Part shown: in pieces, positions 18,001-24,000 of the stretch
Position numbering within the stretch: the stretch's first letter is position 1
Layout of the letters: the number at the start of each line of letters is the position of its first letter
Made by a program: the position numbers
NCBI GenBank assembly: GCA_046758745.1
Contig: JBHIAV010000020.1
Coordinates: 1-45,692, forward strand
Direction: 5' to 3'
From: Gemmatimonadota bacterium
GTDB taxonomy: Bacteria > Gemmatimonadota > Gemmatimonadetes > Palauibacterales > Palauibacteraceae
Length of the DNA stretch: 45,692 nt

Positions 18001-21000
18001 GGGTGGGTCCGCGCCGGCGGGAAGCGGCCAGCTCACCGATCGTGAGCGAGAGGTGCTCGCCCTGGTGGCCGAAGGCCTCACGAACGCGCAGATCGCGCGG
18101 CGGCTGAGAGTGAGCGGGAACACGGTGAAGTTCCACCTCCAGAACCTCTACATGAAGCTGGGGGTCAGCAATCGGACCGAGGCCGCCGCGCGCTATCTGA
18201 AAGAGCGGTCGCCGGACTGATTCTCCCCGCCTCCTCCCCTCCGGATCTCCTCGTCGGCGGTCACCACCCGAACGGGTAGGGCGCCCCCTGCCCGAAAGGA
18301 AGCGGCGGCTCACCCGCCCGGCGGTGGTAGGGGGGCCGACCGCGTGCAACCTTCTCCATGTGAGCCTACCCGGCGCCTTTCGGCCGGGGCCAACTGTCGT
18401 CCGGACGGGGAGAACCCGATGCAGATCTATCTCGACACGGCCAACCTCGAGGAGATTCGTGAGGCGGCCGGCTGGGGAGTGCTGAGCGGGGTGACCACGA
18501 ATCCCACGCTGCTGGCGCGCGAGAGCGGCATGGACTTCGAGGAGACGATCCGGCAGATCGCCTCGCTGGTGGACGGCCCGATCAGCGCCGAGGCGGTCCG
18601 CGGAGACGCCGACGGAATGGTGGAGGAGGGGCGGCGGTACGCCGCCTGGCATCCCAACGTGATCATCAAGGTGCCCTGCACGGTCGAGGGCTTGAAGGCG
18701 GTATACCGTCTCAAGGCGGAGGGAATACGCACCAACGTCACCCTCTGCTTCAACGCCAACCAGGCGCTCCTCGCGGCCCGAGCCGGGGCGTTCGTGATCT
18801 CGCCCTTCGTCGGCCGACTGGATGACATCTCGCAGCCCGGGATGGATCTCATCCGCGATATCGTCGCACTCTTCGACCGGGACCCCGAGATCGAGACGCG
18901 AGTCCTGGCGGCTTCGATCCGCCATCCGCGCCACATCGTGGAAGCTGCGCTGGCGGGCGCTCACATCGCGACCTGCCCCTTCAAGGTACTCCGGCAGAGC
19001 ATGAAGCACCCGCTCACGGACATCGGAATCGAGCGGTTCCTGGCGGACTGGCGGCGCCGCGAGGAAAAAGCGACCCACCCAGAGGCCACGGAGGCTGGGA
19101 GGCCGGCGGAGGCGGGTCGGCAGCCGTCCCTCCGGCCCGTGTGAGCCGTGGGGTGGTGAGCGACTCGCCGGCGGGGACTACGCCCCGTTCCCTTGGCCCG
19201 GGAGCGTGAACGCACAGTCAGACATGAACGCACAGTCAGACATGAACGCACCGTCAGAGAGGAGCTGAAATCATGCCGACGACGAAAGAGGTCTTGGGAG
19301 GGACAACGGCCTCCCCGGTGCCGGAAGCCAGCGAGAGCCCGGGCTTCGAAGCAGGGGTGGCGCCCTACCAGAAGAACTACTGGGCTCCGGAGTACCGGCC
19401 AAGAGACACGGACCTGCTCTGCGCGTTCCGCATCACCCCGAAGCCGGGGGTCGACATCATCGAGGCGGCCGCCGCAGTGGCCGCGGAATCTTCCACCGGG
19501 ACGTGGACCGAGGTGTGGTCGAGCGCCCTCACGGACCTCGATCGCTACCGCGCGCTCGTCTACCGGATCGACGACGACATCGCGTACATCGCCTACCCGT
19601 TGGATCTCTTCGAGGAGGGTTCCATCGTCAACATCATGAGCTCGATCGTCGGCAACGTCTTCGGCTTCAAGGCCGTCACCGCCCTGCGTCTGGAGGATAT
19701 GCGGATCCCGGTCGCGCTGGTGAAGACCTTCCCGGGACCGCCCACCGGGATCGAGCTGGAGCGGCAGCGGCTCAAGAAGTTCGGCCGCCCGCTACTCGGG
19801 GGCACGATCAAGCCGAAGCTCGGCCTGAGCCCCGCGGGATACGCCCGGGTCGTCTACGACTGCCTCAAAGGCGGGCTGGACACCACCAAGGACGACGAGA
19901 ACATGAACTCCCAGCCGTTCAGCCGCTGGCGGGACCGCTTCCTGTTCGTGATGGAGGCGGTGAACAAGGCGGAGGCCGAGACCGGCGAGACGAAGGGTCA
20001 CTGGCTGAACGTCACCGCCCCCACCACGGAGGAGGCGCTCGAGCGGGCGGATTACGCGGCCGAACTCGGCTCGCGCTACGTGATGATCGATTACCTGACC
20101 GCCGGCTTCGCTGCCCACCAGAGCGTGCGCAATCACATCGAGAAGAAGGGGCTGATGCTCCACGTGCATCGGGCGATGCACGCCGTCATCGACCGGCAGA
20201 AGAACCACGGCATCGCCTTCCGGGTGCTCGCGAAGTGGCTCCGGCTGGCCGGCGGCGATCACCTGCACACGGGGACGGTGGTCGGCAAGCTGGAAGGCGA
20301 TAGGGCCGTGACCATCGCCATCGCGGACATGCTGAGGAAGGATTGGGTCCCCGCCGACCCGGCGACGGGCGCCTACTTCGAGCAGGAGTGGGCAGGGCTC
20401 AAAACCGTCTTTCCGTGCGCCTCCGGTGGCATCCATGTGCATCACATCCCGGCCCTGTACGAGATCTACGGGAACGATGCCTTCTGGCTCTTCGGCGGCG
20501 GGACGCACGGACACCCCGGCGGCAGCCTGGCGGGAGCGCGGGCCAACAGGGTCGCCACAGAGGCGATCGCCCAGGGAATTCCCCTGGAGAGGGCGGCCCG
20601 CGACTGCCCGGAGCTCCGCGACGCGATGGAGCTCTGGAAGGACATCCGCTTCGAAGACTGAGGAGATCGACCATGCCGTTCCGAGACCAGAATCCGATCC
20701 TGCTCGGCATCGTCGGCGACTCCGGTTCGGGCAAATCGACGCTCTCCGCAGGGATCGAGATGATCCTCGGCAAGGAAAGAGTGACCGATATCTGCCTGGA
20801 CGACTACCACCGCTACGATCGTGCCGGGCGCAAGGCGCATGGAATCACCGCGCTGAATCCCGAGTGCAACCACCTGGAGCTGATGCGGCAGCACCTCCTC
20901 CTCCTCCGCGCAGGAGAGACGATCTTCAAGCCGGTGTATGATCACTCCGATGGGACCTTCGGTCCCCCGGAGTTCGTGACGCCGCGACAGCTCGTGGTCG

Positions 21001-24000
21001 TGCATGGGCTTTTGGGGCTGTACACCCAGCCCCTCAAGTCCGCCTTTCACGTCTCGGTCTTTCTCGACCCCGATCCCGACCTCCGGGTGCAGTGGAAGAT
21101 CAGCCGGGATACGGCGAAGCGCGGCTACACTCCGGAGCAGGTGCGGCAACAGCTCGAGCATCGGCGTCACGATTCCGAGACGTTCATCCTGCCGCAGCGG
21201 GGGCGGGCGGACCTCGTCGTGCGCTTCTACCCGCAGCCCGGCTACTGGCAGACGCGCGACAACACCAGGCTGAACGTCCGCATCCTGCAGCGCCACGACG
21301 TGGGGGGACCCGACCTCGAGTCGCTGCTGGTCGAGGCGGCTCGCATCGCCTGCCACGGGAAAAGGGGACGCCCGTGTCTGTACCTCGAGGAATATTCGAC
21401 GGGTGGAGTCGAGGAGGCCCTCTACATAGACGGTTCGATTCCAGACGAGCTGGCCGCGGAAGTGGAAGACACCCTGTGGGATCAGATGCCGCGGGTCCGA
21501 CACCTGCGCCCGGAGGAGATCGGCGTGTTCGATGAGGGCGGGGTGATCCGCCGGTCCAACAGCCTCGCGCTCACCCAGCTGCTCGTCACGTACTACCTCG
21601 TGCGAGCCGCCGAAGTGGCGCGGGAGGAGCTGGCGGCCTCGGCGGCCGCCTCGTGACGCGGCCGGCGGCGAAGGGGAGCGGGATGCGATCGCCGCCGCCC
21701 CCGCTCGACGAGCTGTCGATCAACGTGATCCGCGGCCTGGCCATGGATGCGGTAGAGGCCGCGCGCTCCGGGCACCCCGGGATGCCGATGGGAGCGGCCA
21801 CCATGGCGTACGTCCTGTGGGACCGGCATCTGCGGCACGATCCGACCGACCCTGTCTGGCCCGACCGGGACCGCTTCGTTCTCTCGGCTGGACACGGCTC
21901 CATGCTCCTGTACGCCCTGCTGCACCTCACCGGCTATGAGTTGCCGCTCGAGGAGCTGAGGGAGTTTCGGCAATGGGGGAGCCGGACGCCCGGCCACCCG
22001 GAGTACGGACATACCCCCGGCGTCGAGACGACGACCGGTCCCCTCGGCCAGGGCTTCGGAAACGCCGTCGGGATGGCGATCGCCGAACGCTGCCTGGCTG
22101 CCCGCTTCAACCGGCCCGGGCACGGGATCGTGGACCACCGGACGTACGTGATCGCGAGCGATGGGGATCTCATGGAGGGTGTCCAGTCCGAAGCCGCCTC
22201 GCTGGCCGGTCACCTGGGGCTGGGTCGCCTCATCGTCCTGTACGACGCCAATCGGATCAGCATCGATGGCTCGACCGACCTCGCCTTTACCGAGGACGTG
22301 GGAGCCCGGTTCGTCGGCTACGGCTGGCACGTGCAGGAGATCGACGGACACGATGCGGCGGCGGTGGACGAGGCCCTCACGGCGGCCCGGGGGGAGGTCG
22401 GGCGCCCCTCTCTCATCATAGCCAGGACCCACATCGGCTACGGGAGCCCCAACAAGCAGGACTCGGCGGACGCGCACGGCGCACCGCTCGGATCGGAGGA
22501 GCTGCGCCTGGTCAAGGAGCGGCTCGGAATCCCTCCGGAGGAGAGCTTCTGGATCCCGGAAGAGGTCCGCACCCACATGCGCGCGGCGCTCGAGCGAGGC
22601 TGCGTGTGGCGGCGAGAGTGGGAGGATCGGTTGCGGGCCTACGCCGAGGCCTTCCCCGGGGAGCACACGCGCTTCCTGGAGGCCCTCCGAGGCGACCTGC
22701 CCGCCGGGTGGGGGGAATCGCTGCCCATGTTCGAAGGCGGGACCCGCTGTCGGAGCATGGCGGGTGCCTGTCGGGGATACGGGCCGTCTCCTGTCGGGGT
22801 GATGGCAGCCGCCTTTCGGGGACACGGGCCGTCGCCTTTACGCCACAGGGCTCCCTGGTTCGTATCGGGGGGACTCCCCATCTTGGAGAACCTCCATGTT
22901 TCGGGCAGGAGCCCCGGCCCTGTTCGGGCAGGGATCGCGGTCGTCGGGCACCCCTTTCTAGGTCGGGCAGGAACGCCCGTCGGGAGCGGGTCGCGTGGGA
23001 TACACCCGCAGGGACATCCAGGACTCGGTGAACCGGGCCGGCGACGCCCACATGCAGGCGCTCATCGATCATCACGAGTCGGCCTATCCGGAGAGCCCTC
23101 CCACGCCGGGAAACATCTGCCGCGCCGAAGCCGAGCGCCTGAATGAGCTGGGCTTCGGGAACGCCGGCGACGACCTCAGACTGATCGAGACGAGGGTCGA
23201 ACGGGCCGGGAACGAAGTTCGGATCACGCACGTTTTCGAGTACGTACCACTCGGGGTGCGCCTATTGACCGAGCCGTTCACGGGCTACGCCTGAGCCGGG
23301 CCGTTCTGCCGGGCCCGACCCCTCGTGAACCCGGAGCGCACCGGCGGCGCGCGGTGGAACGGCGGGAGGCTTGCGCTCAGGCGGACACCAACATATCGTG
23401 ATGACCCCCCAGAGGTTCCGGGGCTGCCGGCAGGGGTGGCCGGTCCGCGAGACCGGCGCACGACCGGGGGCTCACGGAGAGTTCTTCGGCGGTGACGCAT
23501 GGCTGAGGGTGTCTCGTCAGGGAGCCGGGCGTGGGGAGTGGCGGTAGGGTGGCGGAGCGAGGGCAAGCCCGGTCCGTTCGGATGCCGCGGCAGTGGGCCG
23601 GGGCAGCGGTGGCGCGGGTACTGGTGGTCCTCCTGTGGCCGGCTTGCCGACGCTCTCGCTTCCTCCCGTTCTCGACTCCCCTCGATTCTTGCCACTCTCG
23701 TTACTCGCCGCCAGGACTCTCCCGAAGATCCACATTCCGGCTTCAGACTAGCGGTCTGCACTTCCCTCTCATCGAGGAGGCTCGAGATGGCTCACGCGCA
23801 GGTCCGGCGCGCTGTCGTTGGGAGCGCCACGTTGGTGGGCCCATGGGTCGCGCCGGCGGGCCGGGGAGGAATCGACCGCGGTGGACCCGGAGAGCGGGGT
23901 CCACCGCCGTAAGCGGAAGCCTCATTCGGAGCCGTCTCTCCGAGACGGAGTCTCGCCCATCCCAAGCAGGCAGGAGTTCTTTATGAGTCGACTCAATCAT

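Follow-up and report, generated by a model that had tools for sequence, protein, structure and literature searches.

A Calvin-cycle cassette encoding, in this order, a histidine kinase, a response regulator, a transaldolase, a RuBisCO large subunit (rbcL), a phosphoribulokinase (prk) and a transketolase sits within an H4MPT/XoxF methylotrophy island, flanked by fae and xoxF, on contig C20 (JBHIAV010000020.1) of a Gemmatimonadota genome (GCA_046758745.1, G000), the window analysed being positions 1-45,692 of this contig. We consider it most likely, with a probability of about 0.68, that this is a functional Calvin module with a RuBisCO of the rare small-subunit-free kind, wired into the methanol island of an aerobic, outer-membrane-bearing Gemmatimonadota bacterium that would grow by autotrophic methylotrophy.

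The large subunit gene (19273-20661, + strand) had been reported in the initial annotation as an intact 462-aa frame with a PF00016 score of 406 bits, and both statements hold: the frame is open, the product scores 404.6 bits with PF00016 (406.1 in the whole-genome scan), 150.3 with PF02788 and 657.6 with NF003252 (cut-off 438), and a 28-row alignment (A1) shows no variation in any catalytic column. The PDB ranking reported there, with five 457-aa chains at 771-775 bits, 6ura at 679 and the next chain at 630, was reproduced in these values (771-774.6, 679.4 and, for 6ekc, 630), yet it had omitted 8u66 (697.9) and 7qsw (681.4), which fall in between. At identical scores, the five highest-ranking chains correspond to UniRef proteins named 'synthetic construct', which makes them reconstructions from the laboratory and not enzymes found in nature. 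Three copies of an 18-nt unit stand in tandem immediately before the rbcL ribosome-binding site (19207-19260, +; family D1; 100%, 100% and 89% identity), at which the Logan contigs of one sequencing run (X2) break. The gene for the 327-aa phosphoribulokinase (20673-21656, +; PF00485 140.7 bits) does come next, with the NF005655 score given before (345 bits, cut-off 236), though after a gap of 11 nt and not 12.

Upstream of rbcL, the cassette opens with a small HisKA_3-type histidine kinase (16836-17594, +; PF07730, PF02518), followed by a NarL/LuxR-type response regulator (17591-18220, +; PF00072, PF00196) and a short transaldolase/fructose-6-phosphate aldolase of the TalC/MipB type (18344-19144, +; TIGR00875 287 bits, cut-off 246), whose true start may lie some 75 nt further in, as TIGR00875 aligns from residue 26. 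The cassette shares its order and content with Chloroflexota form I' loci, where the counterparts are 39-47% (kinase, likewise adjoining rbcL), 53-64% (regulator), 39-48% (Prk) and 57-64% (transketolase) identical. Regulator homologues in the same identity range adjoin rbcL in 25 of 46 genome and 18 of 43 metagenome loci, and a TalC/MipB-type gene also precedes rbcL in two loci (L005 and L008).

The transketolase gene (21653-23146, +) is truncated. Only its N-terminal thiamine-diphosphate domain is recognisable (homology over 21704-22765), as tblastn with the 750-aa frame of a clade locus (L039) matches only residues 86-443 of that frame, and TIGR00232 aligns over positions 3-343 of 654 with 467.7 bits, below its cut-off of 682. 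The remainder of the frame (22766-23146) gave no Pfam match and no homology, and a 36-nt imperfect duplication (22757-22837, +; family D2; 83% identity) sits where the homology ends. This remnant indicates that the locus went through at least one disruptive event. The earlier reading had overlooked both the truncation and the placement of the cassette between fae and xoxF.

To the left of the cassette, H4MPT-linked C1 genes extend over 55-15997, mostly on the - strand with a few on the + strand, as assigned by Pfam and by equivalogs scoring over their cut-offs (TIGR03120, TIGR03119, TIGR03122, TIGR03121, TIGR03129 and TIGR03123). Among them are an H4MPT-pathway protein (55-1917), CitG-like (3538-4428) and RimK-like (4425-5408) genes, mch (5405-6358), fhcD (6343-7242), fhcC (7429-8367), fhcA (8285-9982), fhcB (10008-11408) and an mtdB-like gene (15143-15997), with ATP-grasp ligases also among the island genes. 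The border gene is fae, for formaldehyde-activating enzyme (16052-16573, -; TIGR03126 256 bits, cut-off 118). On the right, the border is formed by a gene for a xoxF-like PQQ methanol/ethanol dehydrogenase (23818-25773, +; TIGR03075 702.8 bits, cut-off 480), which probably starts at ATG 23983, with a stretch resembling a signal peptide behind it. Behind it lie the XoxF accessory genes for a MoxJ/XoxJ-like binding protein (25919-26851, +), a PQQ-system ABC binding protein (27506-28801, +) and a YncE-like beta-propeller (28333-29883, +), with TIGR03871 and TIGR03866 over their cut-offs and TIGR03863 at 152.7 bits, below 413.6. A second PQQ dehydrogenase (33271-35568, -; Pfam; TIGR03075 483 bits) lies further along the contig.

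Synteny of the island half of the contig with relatives, which had previously been lacking, is now provided by two other Gemmatimonadota genomes, G001 (contig C14) and G003 (contig C106), which match the flanks of the cassette. The H4MPT genes are syntenic with both, most at 45-83% amino-acid identity, and the XoxF accessory genes with G003. Fae is 83% identical to both and XoxF 84% (G001) and 77% (G003); DNA similarity to G001 stops at 16585, and similarity to both genomes resumes at 23983-24005. In these genomes the divergent fae and xoxF are direct neighbours, spaced by about 0.8-1.0 kb, as opposed to 7.4 kb here, where the cassette lies between them. This placement is so far unique: xoxF or fae stands beside rbcL in none of the five other clade loci with flanking sequence (L039, L002, L090, L091 and L092). 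The island is sporadic in the family, since Fae and XoxF occur together in only 1 of 40 family genomes.

The clade of the RbcL protein is a distinct one, comprising at least 16 cluster representatives, and its sole named hosts are Gemmatimonadota. Our trees separate this clade from the form I' core (support 100/100), the 8u66-like group and the small-subunit-bearing form I, but do not fix its exact branch point. RbcL has neither of two form I features, the 12-residue insertion and the C-terminal extension, which gives it form I' grade, so that the original label 'form I'-like' is right at that level and does not extend to membership of the core. The nearest sequences (80% and 77% identity) come from MAGs named Gemmatimonadetes and Gemmatimonadales. 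The scarcity of RbcL noted before in the phylum, and its absence from the family, were borne out in a sample of 401 genomes, G000 among them: every other RbcL stays below 64% identity, 8 genomes encode one at 53-63%, 23 encode RuBisCO-like proteins at 30-37%, and none of the 30 family genomes in the sample has an RbcL.

Form I' RuBisCO was reportedly treated by Banda et al. 2020. Its type structure is 6URA, from Candidatus Promineofilum breve, as cited in passages of PMC11707681 and 10.1101/2021.08.23.457424. The enzyme described here resembles form I' in having no small subunit, insertion or extension, in the prk directly downstream and in the shared kinase, regulator, transaldolase and transketolase accessory genes, at 64-73% identity. 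It differs in lying outside the core, which holds L025 (823 bits to 6ura), in retaining form-I-like residues (for instance HAVIDRQ, where the core has HAVFTRQ), and in its setting among methylotrophy genes of an aerobic, outer-membrane-bearing host. The 8u66-like group (P0085, P0100) likewise consists of small-subunit-less form I relatives, about 70% identical to RbcL here, but shares the 12-residue insertion with form I and forms its own clade (100/100). This group is probably form I'', and 8u66 the form I'' structure that a preprint mentions as existing (10.64898/2026.09.21.753380, in the part available). A host outside the Chloroflexota is by itself not unique to this genome, as form I' core genes also occur in MAGs named Planctomycetota, Bacillota, Armatimonadota and KSB1. 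The available portion of the same preprint (Bamba et al. 2026) describes all earlier form I' sequences as coming from Chloroflexi, adds five from Planctomycetota and does not contain the string 'Gemmatimon'. It also describes (again in that portion) two small groups, 'subclade-1' and 'subclade-2', outside the 'form I' core' and with a position undecided by AU tests. The Gemmatimonadota clade behaves in the same way in trees, and that it is one of the two is only a guess, made from tree behaviour and not from sequence.

Two readings would place the explanation in the assembly. According to one, an rbcS gene sits in the missing 12.6% of this 87.4% complete genome, which would make this an ordinary form I RuBisCO of the L8S8 type. 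The PF00101 profile gave no match at E <= 1 in G000, and tblastn with two RbcS proteins of related loci returned nothing better than E = 0.23, in keeping with the earlier failure to find rbcS; rbcS is also absent from G001 and G002, both of them named Gemmatimonadota MAGs whose RbcL falls in this clade. Moreover, in loci at 53-57% identity rbcS adjoins rbcL in 5/5, 6/6 and 10/10 cases with downstream DNA (21 loci together; the 10/10 being metagenome loci, of 11 in that range, and the 5/5 genome loci), and every small-subunit-bearing row has the insertion and the extension that RbcL here lacks. Conversely, prk comes next in 34 of 34 metagenome loci at 64% identity or more with downstream DNA (43 of 54 loci in this range, rbcS in none of the 43) and in 42 of 42 form-I'-like loci from species genomes, again counting those with downstream DNA (51 loci in all; rbcS in 0 of 46). 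Thus the contrast drawn initially between a conserved rbcL-prk order and more distant rbcL-rbcS loci stands, and an rbcS hidden in the assembly gap is highly improbable. Equally improbable, in our view, is a mis-binned or chimeric contig whose RuBisCO would really come from a Chloroflexota organism. Such an origin might be suspected from the island genes in only 1 of 40 family genomes, and from a right-end gene (44360-45541) with homologues in only 17 of 40 family genomes, at 36-53% identity, a result that reproduces only in part the match of the other half of the contig to 24 of 25 family genomes reported initially. Against it, both cassette flanks match one contiguous island of named Gemmatimonadota MAGs, the closest RbcL are in Gemmatimonadota MAGs as well, and both junctions are bridged in separate assemblies: one Logan contig of run X1 spans 15000-24789 with zero differences, two of run X2 cover both junctions, and run X3 has pieces at both. 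The cassette lies at the 36th tetranucleotide percentile of 376 genome pieces, and all 7-kb pieces of C20 lie within the 0th-80th. Three lines identify the host itself as a Gemmatimonadota bacterium: its RpoB (70-72% identity across the whole protein to three named Gemmatimonadota MAGs; 51% over parts to a Planctomycetaceae and a Bacillota MAG), the synteny of the flanks and the closest relatives of RbcL. Two TonB-dependent receptors (34991-37783, +; 37902-40100, -; Pfam) indicate an outer membrane, in line with the initial view of a diderm host outside the Anaerolineae. It is composition that would place C20 in this bin and not in another Gemmatimonadota population of the sample.

Two further readings accept the locus as it stands and concern its use. 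The cassette might be an unused, decaying leftover of lateral transfer, the transketolase truncation being the first visible step of loss, and the cut after the N-terminal domain and the following 1 kb without recognisable genes would fit this. However, the rbcL, prk, transaldolase, kinase and regulator frames are all open, the catalytic columns are intact and the composition is fully host-like; dN/dS is 0.17-0.19 for rbcL (against three clade members) and 0.33 for prk (against two of them), values measured along the lineage without isolating the terminal branch. Since a complete transketolase gene lies elsewhere in the genome (contig C7) and could serve, losing the cassette copy would cost nothing, and we consider decay improbable. 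Alternatively, the module may be real but used as an electron sink or for lithoautotrophic growth with H2, CO or sulfur compounds, its proximity to xoxF then being an accident of insertion. Other clade loci carry rbcL-prk in unrelated contexts (in L002, for instance, uvrA and a Ser/Thr kinase; in L039, an aldehyde dehydrogenase). G002 is without Fae, and its XoxF-like protein reaches only 51%. The runs in which this stretch occurs, none of them an RNA run, carry the label hydrothermal vent metagenome, and inorganic electron donors abound in such a setting. Yet of the three Gemmatimonadota genomes in which this RbcL clade occurs, two (G000 and G001) have the XoxF/H4MPT island, and G003, a MAG with small-subunit-bearing form I, carries a tkt-tal-regulator-kinase set directly beside the same island, so that we judge another use unlikely, though less so than decay.

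Autotrophic methylotrophy remains the preferred reading. The autotrophic methylotrophs among Bradyrhizobium, Sinorhizobium and the verrucomicrobial lineage use ordinary L8S8 form I RuBisCO, whereas the enzyme here has no small subunit and its Calvin genes lie inside the methanol island. The combination of XoxF-type methanol dehydrogenase, RuBisCO and Prk is common to both: in the excerpts available, Bradyrhizobium and Sinorhizobium with XoxF are described as assimilating methanol carbon as CO2 via the Calvin cycle (PMC12628762), and verrucomicrobial methanotrophs as Calvin-cycle autotrophic methylotrophs (PMC8498564). Soil Gemmatimonadetes methylotrophs belong to the same phylum and have H4MPT genes immediately upstream of xoxF, but serine-pathway assimilation was inferred for them, in contrast to the Calvin cassette in the island here, and the words RuBisCO and Calvin are absent from the available text (Butterfield et al. 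2016, PMC5103831). By analogy, the serine cycle could be the main assimilation route here as well.

In the pathway that we propose, the XoxF-type dehydrogenase would oxidise methanol in the periplasm, formaldehyde would be converted to formate via the H4MPT route (Fae, MtdB, Mch, Fhc), and formate dehydrogenase (alpha subunit in G000 at 741 bits, over its cut-off) would release CO2. Prk would make the ribulose-1,5-bisphosphate with which a homo-oligomeric RbcL, probably L8 by analogy with form I', would fix the released CO2. Four haem-copper oxidase subunit I genes are present in G000, and no hexulose-phosphate synthase was found in this 87.4% complete genome. The cassette may have reached the Gemmatimonadota as one block by lateral transfer, long enough ago to acquire a host-like base composition, its transketolase gene being cut by the insertion or by a later deletion; because rbcL-prk stands in three different contexts in three genomes, it seems also to have moved within the phylum. 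Its position exactly between methanol-oxidation genes suggests that this bacterium may build its biomass from the CO2 made by burning methanol.

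The rbcL gene (19273-20661, + strand) is an unbroken frame of 462 codons whose product matches PF00016 (404.6 bits) and PF02788 (150.3 bits) in a Pfam profile search, scores 657.6 bits against the curated family model NF003252 (cut-off 438) and stays below the cut-off of each of the type III, type II and RuBisCO-like models. A genome scan found it to be the only RbcL gene of G000, an assembly of 3.08 Mb in 130 contigs (87.4% complete, 0.08% contaminated) of which the window is the entire contig C20. The prk gene (20673-21656, + strand, 327 codons) opens with an ATG at 20673, 11 nt past the rbcL stop, and reaches 345 bits with NF005655 (cut-off 236), while all uridine kinase models remain below their cut-offs; the adjacency of the two genes in the initial annotation stands, but its distance of 12 nt is corrected to 11 nt. 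The catalytic set, which we take to be E60, T65, W66, N123, T173, K175, K177, K201, D203, E204, H294, R295, H298, H327, K334, S379, G380, G381, G403 and G404 in spinach numbering, was located in the window protein (P0001) with an assumed residue offset of +5, but +12 for the first three residues (E60, T65 and W66). The equivalents E72, T77, W78, N128, T178, K180, K182, K206, D208, E209, H299, R300, H303, H332, K339, S384-G386 and G408-G410 are all present, in columns that are invariant or nearly so in a 28-row RbcL alignment (A1). Judged by these residues and by the curated family score, the product qualifies as a predicted bona fide RuBisCO large subunit. Estimates of dN/dS (0.17-0.19 for rbcL and 0.33 for prk), obtained with synonymous distances near saturation and with the terminal branch not isolated, argue for lasting constraint along the lineage. 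Prk diverges far more than RbcL, with 54-60% versus 77-80% identity between the window and two related loci (L039 and L002). Two other members of the window's RbcL clade depart from the catalytic columns of A1, P0017 with E at the K175 equivalent and P0025 with D at the H294 equivalent, and these substitutions would be either sequencing errors or marks of inactive variants. No RNA run was listed as containing the window stretch.

The large subunit appears to lack a small-subunit partner. PF00101 had no match at E <= 1 in the 87.4% complete G000, and tblastn of the genome with two RbcS from related loci returned nothing better than E 0.23, so that the absence of rbcS reported in the initial annotation is confirmed. 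Among 51 loci from species genomes, the 46 with RbcL at least 61% identical to that of the window have no rbcS (0/46) and carry prk next wherever downstream DNA is available (42/42), and rbcS directly follows rbcL in all five loci at 53-57% identity. The 54 metagenome loci divide in the same way: at 64% identity or more (n = 43) prk is next in 34/34 loci with downstream DNA and rbcS in 0/43, and at 53-57% identity (n = 11) rbcS is next in 10/10 with downstream DNA, which reproduces the metagenome counts obtained earlier. All six full-length form I genes of the host phylum are followed by rbcS. We also noted that a Planctomycetaceae MAG with a form I' core rbcL (L012) has an rbcS on a separate contig (L060, G004:C508), and this MAG probably carries two RuBisCO forms.

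Ranking of PDB chains recovered the earlier order, in which the five best chains score 771-775 bits and the form I' type structure 6ura (Candidatus Promineofilum breve) 679 bits, and added two chains missing from it, 8u66 (698 bits) and 7qsw (681 bits), which both outrank 6ura. The five top chains match UniRef proteins labelled 'synthetic construct' and are therefore ancestral reconstructions rather than natural enzymes. Close RbcL relatives at 73-86% identity were retrieved from 5.8 billion proteins, and alignments show that the short C-terminus of the window protein is common to 16 representatives. Four trees were built, two quick (52 and 64 rows) and two careful (51 and 48 rows). The 52-row tree, rooted on RuBisCO-like proteins, had an outgroup branch of length 5 and gave only a trichotomy; in the later trees closer outgroups taken from 50%-identity representatives replaced this root. 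The 64-row tree contained three synthetic sequences, which were excluded from the two careful trees used for the tests; certain redundant rows and the longest three outgroups were likewise dropped before those trees were built. Three groups are firmly recovered, namely the form I' core (support 99-100), which holds L025 (823 bits to 6ura) along with MAGs titled Planctomycetaceae, Thermoguttaceae and Bacillota; small-subunit-bearing form I (100/99-100); and the pair P0085 and P0100 (100/100), of which P0085 scores 937 bits to 8u66 and which is probably form I''. For the window clade, the quick tree of 64 rows gives support of 99 and the careful tree of 48 rows 93/87, and in the 51-row tree it does not form one clade, with monophyly not rejected (p-AU 0.364).

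The window gene falls outside the form I' core (core support 100/100), and the branches that join the groups are weak: maximum likelihood places the window clade with form I at support 86, 78/99 and 58/87, and a tree forced to unite all small-subunit-less rows scored 1.44 log-likelihood units above the free search and was not rejected (p-AU 0.577). Two sequence features bear on the placement. A 12-residue insertion in the C-terminal domain is common to form I, P0085, P0100, P0065 and the synthetic ancestors, and is absent from 10/10 outgroup representatives, the form I' core, P0029 and the entire window clade; in addition, RbcL of the window clade ends 2 residues past the last conserved F, compared with 11-18 in form I rows. 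Unlike form I (L8S8), the window gene has neither an adjacent rbcS nor the 12-residue insertion nor a C-terminal extension, and it differs from the 8u66-like group in lacking the insertion and in lying outside the P0085/P0100 clade. It shares the missing C-terminal extension with form I', whose enzyme is a homo-octamer (L8) active without a small subunit and which is described as lacking that extension in the accessible part of a preprint of September 2026 (10.64898/2026.09.21.753380). Together, the missing insertion and the short C-terminus suggest that the window clade diverged from the stem before the 8u66-like group and form I separated, and we conclude from these comparisons that it belongs to the form I' grade, outside its core. 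The label 'form I'-like' in the initial annotation accordingly holds for the lack of rbcS and of the C-terminal extension, but not for membership of the form I' core. The same preprint, as far as its accessible text goes, recognises a form I' core and, besides it, two small subclades, and leaves their placement and the monophyly of form I' unsettled (10.64898/2026.09.21.753380); the window clade likewise lies outside the core with weak placement, a resemblance in position. Form IF was considered and dropped, as those enzymes carry small-subunit genes and branch within form I according to the part available of 10.64898/2026.03.18.712719.

Beyond the assignment to the form I' grade, we tentatively entertain a broader reading, to which we give a joint probability of roughly 0.3. 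It holds that the clade might be a separate, slow-evolving small-subunit-less lineage working in aerobes, which would make form I' paraphyletic and the clade the closest natural proxy for the ancestor that preceded the small subunit; that the Gemmatimonadota-type enzymes might have diverged close to the ancestor shared by forms I', I'' and I; and that their resemblance to the laboratory-reconstructed ancestor (775 bits) might exceed that of the other natural groups tested.

The genomic context, which the initial annotation had overlooked, is that of a C1 island (Pfam and NCBIfam). Genes for the H4MPT cofactor, mch, fhcD, fhcC, fhcA, fhcB, an mtdB-like gene and fae occupy 55-16573 on the - strand, and from 23818 on the + strand follow genes for a XoxF-like PQQ methanol/ethanol dehydrogenase (TIGR03075, 702.8 bits, cut-off 480), a MoxJ/XoxJ-like protein after it, and then a PQQ-system binding protein and a YncE-like propeller, with a second PQQ dehydrogenase and TonB-dependent receptors to the right of these accessory genes. 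Between fae and xoxF lies a cassette (16836-23146, + strand) of genes in one direction, encoding a small HisKA_3 kinase, a NarL/LuxR regulator, a short transaldolase, RbcL, Prk and a transketolase whose homology ends after the N-terminal domain (21704-22765, covering 3-343 of 654 model positions). The end of this homology coincides exactly with an imperfect 36-nt duplication (83%, 22757-22837). No domain could be recognised in the following ~1 kb (22766-23817), 22766-23912 yielded no transposase or integrase domain, and no convincing direct or inverted repeats flank the 7-kb cassette. Two Gemmatimonadota MAGs, G001 with the same RbcL clade and G003 with small-subunit-bearing form I, have a matching island with most genes at 45-84% amino-acid identity, and there fae and xoxF are divergent neighbours ~0.8-1.0 kb apart, versus 7.4 kb in the window. 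The DNA resembles that of G001 up to 16585 and again from ~23983-24005, and this gap, together with the neighbouring fae and xoxF of G001 and G003, indicates that the cassette is an insertion into the fae-xoxF spacer. Only the window shows this placement among six clade loci with flanks, neither xoxF nor fae occurs in the flanks of the clade metagenome loci L090-L092, and the island is present in 1/40 family genomes. In the G003 genome, whose RuBisCO is of the ordinary small-subunit-bearing form I, the matching H4MPT/XoxF island directly adjoins tkt, a gene resembling transaldolase and a regulator-kinase pair (L086, G003:C106, 279-4667), so that Calvin-cycle genes may be linked to methylotrophy more than once in the phylum, along with different forms of RuBisCO. 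Further to the right in the window, four ORFs of 265-398 aa without Pfam match (29807-33654) extend from the XoxF accessory genes to the second PQQ dehydrogenase (33271-35568), which has an N-terminal extension of ~230 aa and adjoins two TonB-dependent receptors; the region 29807-35568 with these receptors could be a lanthanide-uptake neighbourhood.

Logan contigs show that the junctions of the cassette are no assembly artefact: one contig of run X1 spans 15000-24789 with zero differences, two contigs of X2 span both junctions and meet at the 18-nt repeat in front of rbcL, and pieces from X3 lie at each of the two junctions. All four runs belong to one study, and X1 and X2 may be the source samples. 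In gene order the cassette agrees with Chloroflexota form I' loci (kinase, regulator, sometimes transaldolase, rbcL, prk, transketolase), at identities of 39-47% (kinase), 53-64% (regulator) and 57-64% (transketolase), and this common order suggests that the block travelled as a unit. In Gemmatimonadota the rbcL-prk pair occurs in three settings: between fae and xoxF in the window, with tkt and an inverted regulator-kinase pair in L039, and flanked by uvrA and a Ser/Thr kinase gene in L002. Four observations tie the host to Gemmatimonadota. RpoB (1547 aa) is 70-72% identical over its full length to three MAGs titled Gemmatimonadetes, Gemmatimonadales and Gemmatimonadota, versus 51% with partial coverage for a Planctomycetaceae and a Bacillota MAG. 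The two nearest RbcL of species genomes (80% and 77%) come from the first two of these three MAGs, and the sole named members of the protein clusters of these two are labelled Gemmatimonadota. The contig encodes two TonB-dependent receptors (Pfam), and the tetranucleotide make-up of its 7-kb pieces ranges from the 0th to the 80th percentile of the genome, with the cassette at the 36th. A sample of 401 genomes of the phylum, G000 included, has no other RbcL above 63% identity to that of the window; eight genomes have one at 53-63%, 23 have RuBisCO-like proteins and the family count is 0/30. The match of the other contig half to family genomes proved weaker than first described, with the DUF6588 gene at the right-hand contig end present in 17/40.

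Just 5' of the rbcL ribosome-binding site, 19207-19260 holds three tandem 18-nt copies (100%, 100% and 89%), and inspection of 22 other loci revealed nothing comparable upstream of rbcL. These repeats may be a binding site for the NarL-type regulator of the cassette, and the two-component pair and the three repeats may together control the module. A CRP/FNR-like palindrome, TGTGA-N6-TCACA with at most one mismatch, occurs within 250 nt upstream of rbcL in 12/45 small-subunit-less loci (L003, L023-L027, L030, L039, L043, L047-L049; exact in the Gemmatimonadota locus L039), at an expectation from shuffles of 0.008 per locus. The region upstream of rbcL in the window is without it, the best site having 4 mismatches.

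Elsewhere, G000 encodes a formate dehydrogenase alpha subunit (741 bits, over cut-off), four haem-copper oxidase subunit I proteins and one complete transketolase; hexulose-phosphate synthase was not found in the genome. In the physiology that we propose from gene content, XoxF would convert methanol to formaldehyde, the H4MPT route would carry this to formate and formate dehydrogenase would yield CO2, and Prk and a homo-oligomeric RbcL would then fix the CO2 from methanol oxidation. Gemmatimonadota have been reported among the top-abundance methanol oxidisers in soil proteomes. Growth of rhizobia on methanol via XoxF and the Calvin cycle is described in the available part of PMC12628762. For Gemmatimonadetes with XoxF and H4MPT, methylotrophy was inferred to use the serine pathway, and the accessible text does not mention RuBisCO (PMC5103831); that of a study of >400 Gemmatimonadota MAGs types their RuBisCOs as IC/ID, II and IV only and does not mention methanol (PMC10581226).

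As far as the accessible texts go, small-subunit-less relatives of form I are assigned to Chloroflexota (PMC11707681, 10.1101/2021.08.23.457424), the second of these sources placing such enzymes mostly in anaerobes and confining form I' to Anaerolineae, and five Planctomycetota form I' cases have been added (10.64898/2026.09.21.753380). The string 'Gemmatimon' is absent from two 2026 preprints, the 2021 preprint, a 2024 MBE paper and a 2026 Nature Communications survey, and we found no description of a small-subunit-less RuBisCO in Gemmatimonadota in the literature searched, of which supplementary files may list such genes. In GenBank, two members of the clade, from Gemmatimonadota MAGs, already carry the annotation 'form I' large subunit; as far as our searches show, the sequences of the clade are public, yet undiscussed. 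The feature is real and intact and of a known kind, a small-subunit-less form-I-related RuBisCO with prk, and what is new is its clade, its host and, above all, its context.

Relatives of plant-type RuBisCO without a small subunit offer the main view of the small subunit's origin, and the locus represents a well-populated sister group in an aerobic, outer-membrane phylum, whose position bears on the question whether form I' is one clade. The Calvin module between fae and xoxF provides a concrete, testable alternative to the serine pathway in Gemmatimonadota, and for engineering, a RuBisCO from an aerobe without small subunit, and possibly without dedicated chaperones, is an attractive candidate for kinetics. 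If the clade were indeed a separate lineage that branched near the ancestor of forms I', I'' and I and that works in fully aerobic bacteria, RuBisCO would support growth in air without a small subunit, and the genes of the clade would serve better than any other natural ones as a proxy for the ancestor of plant-type RuBisCO.
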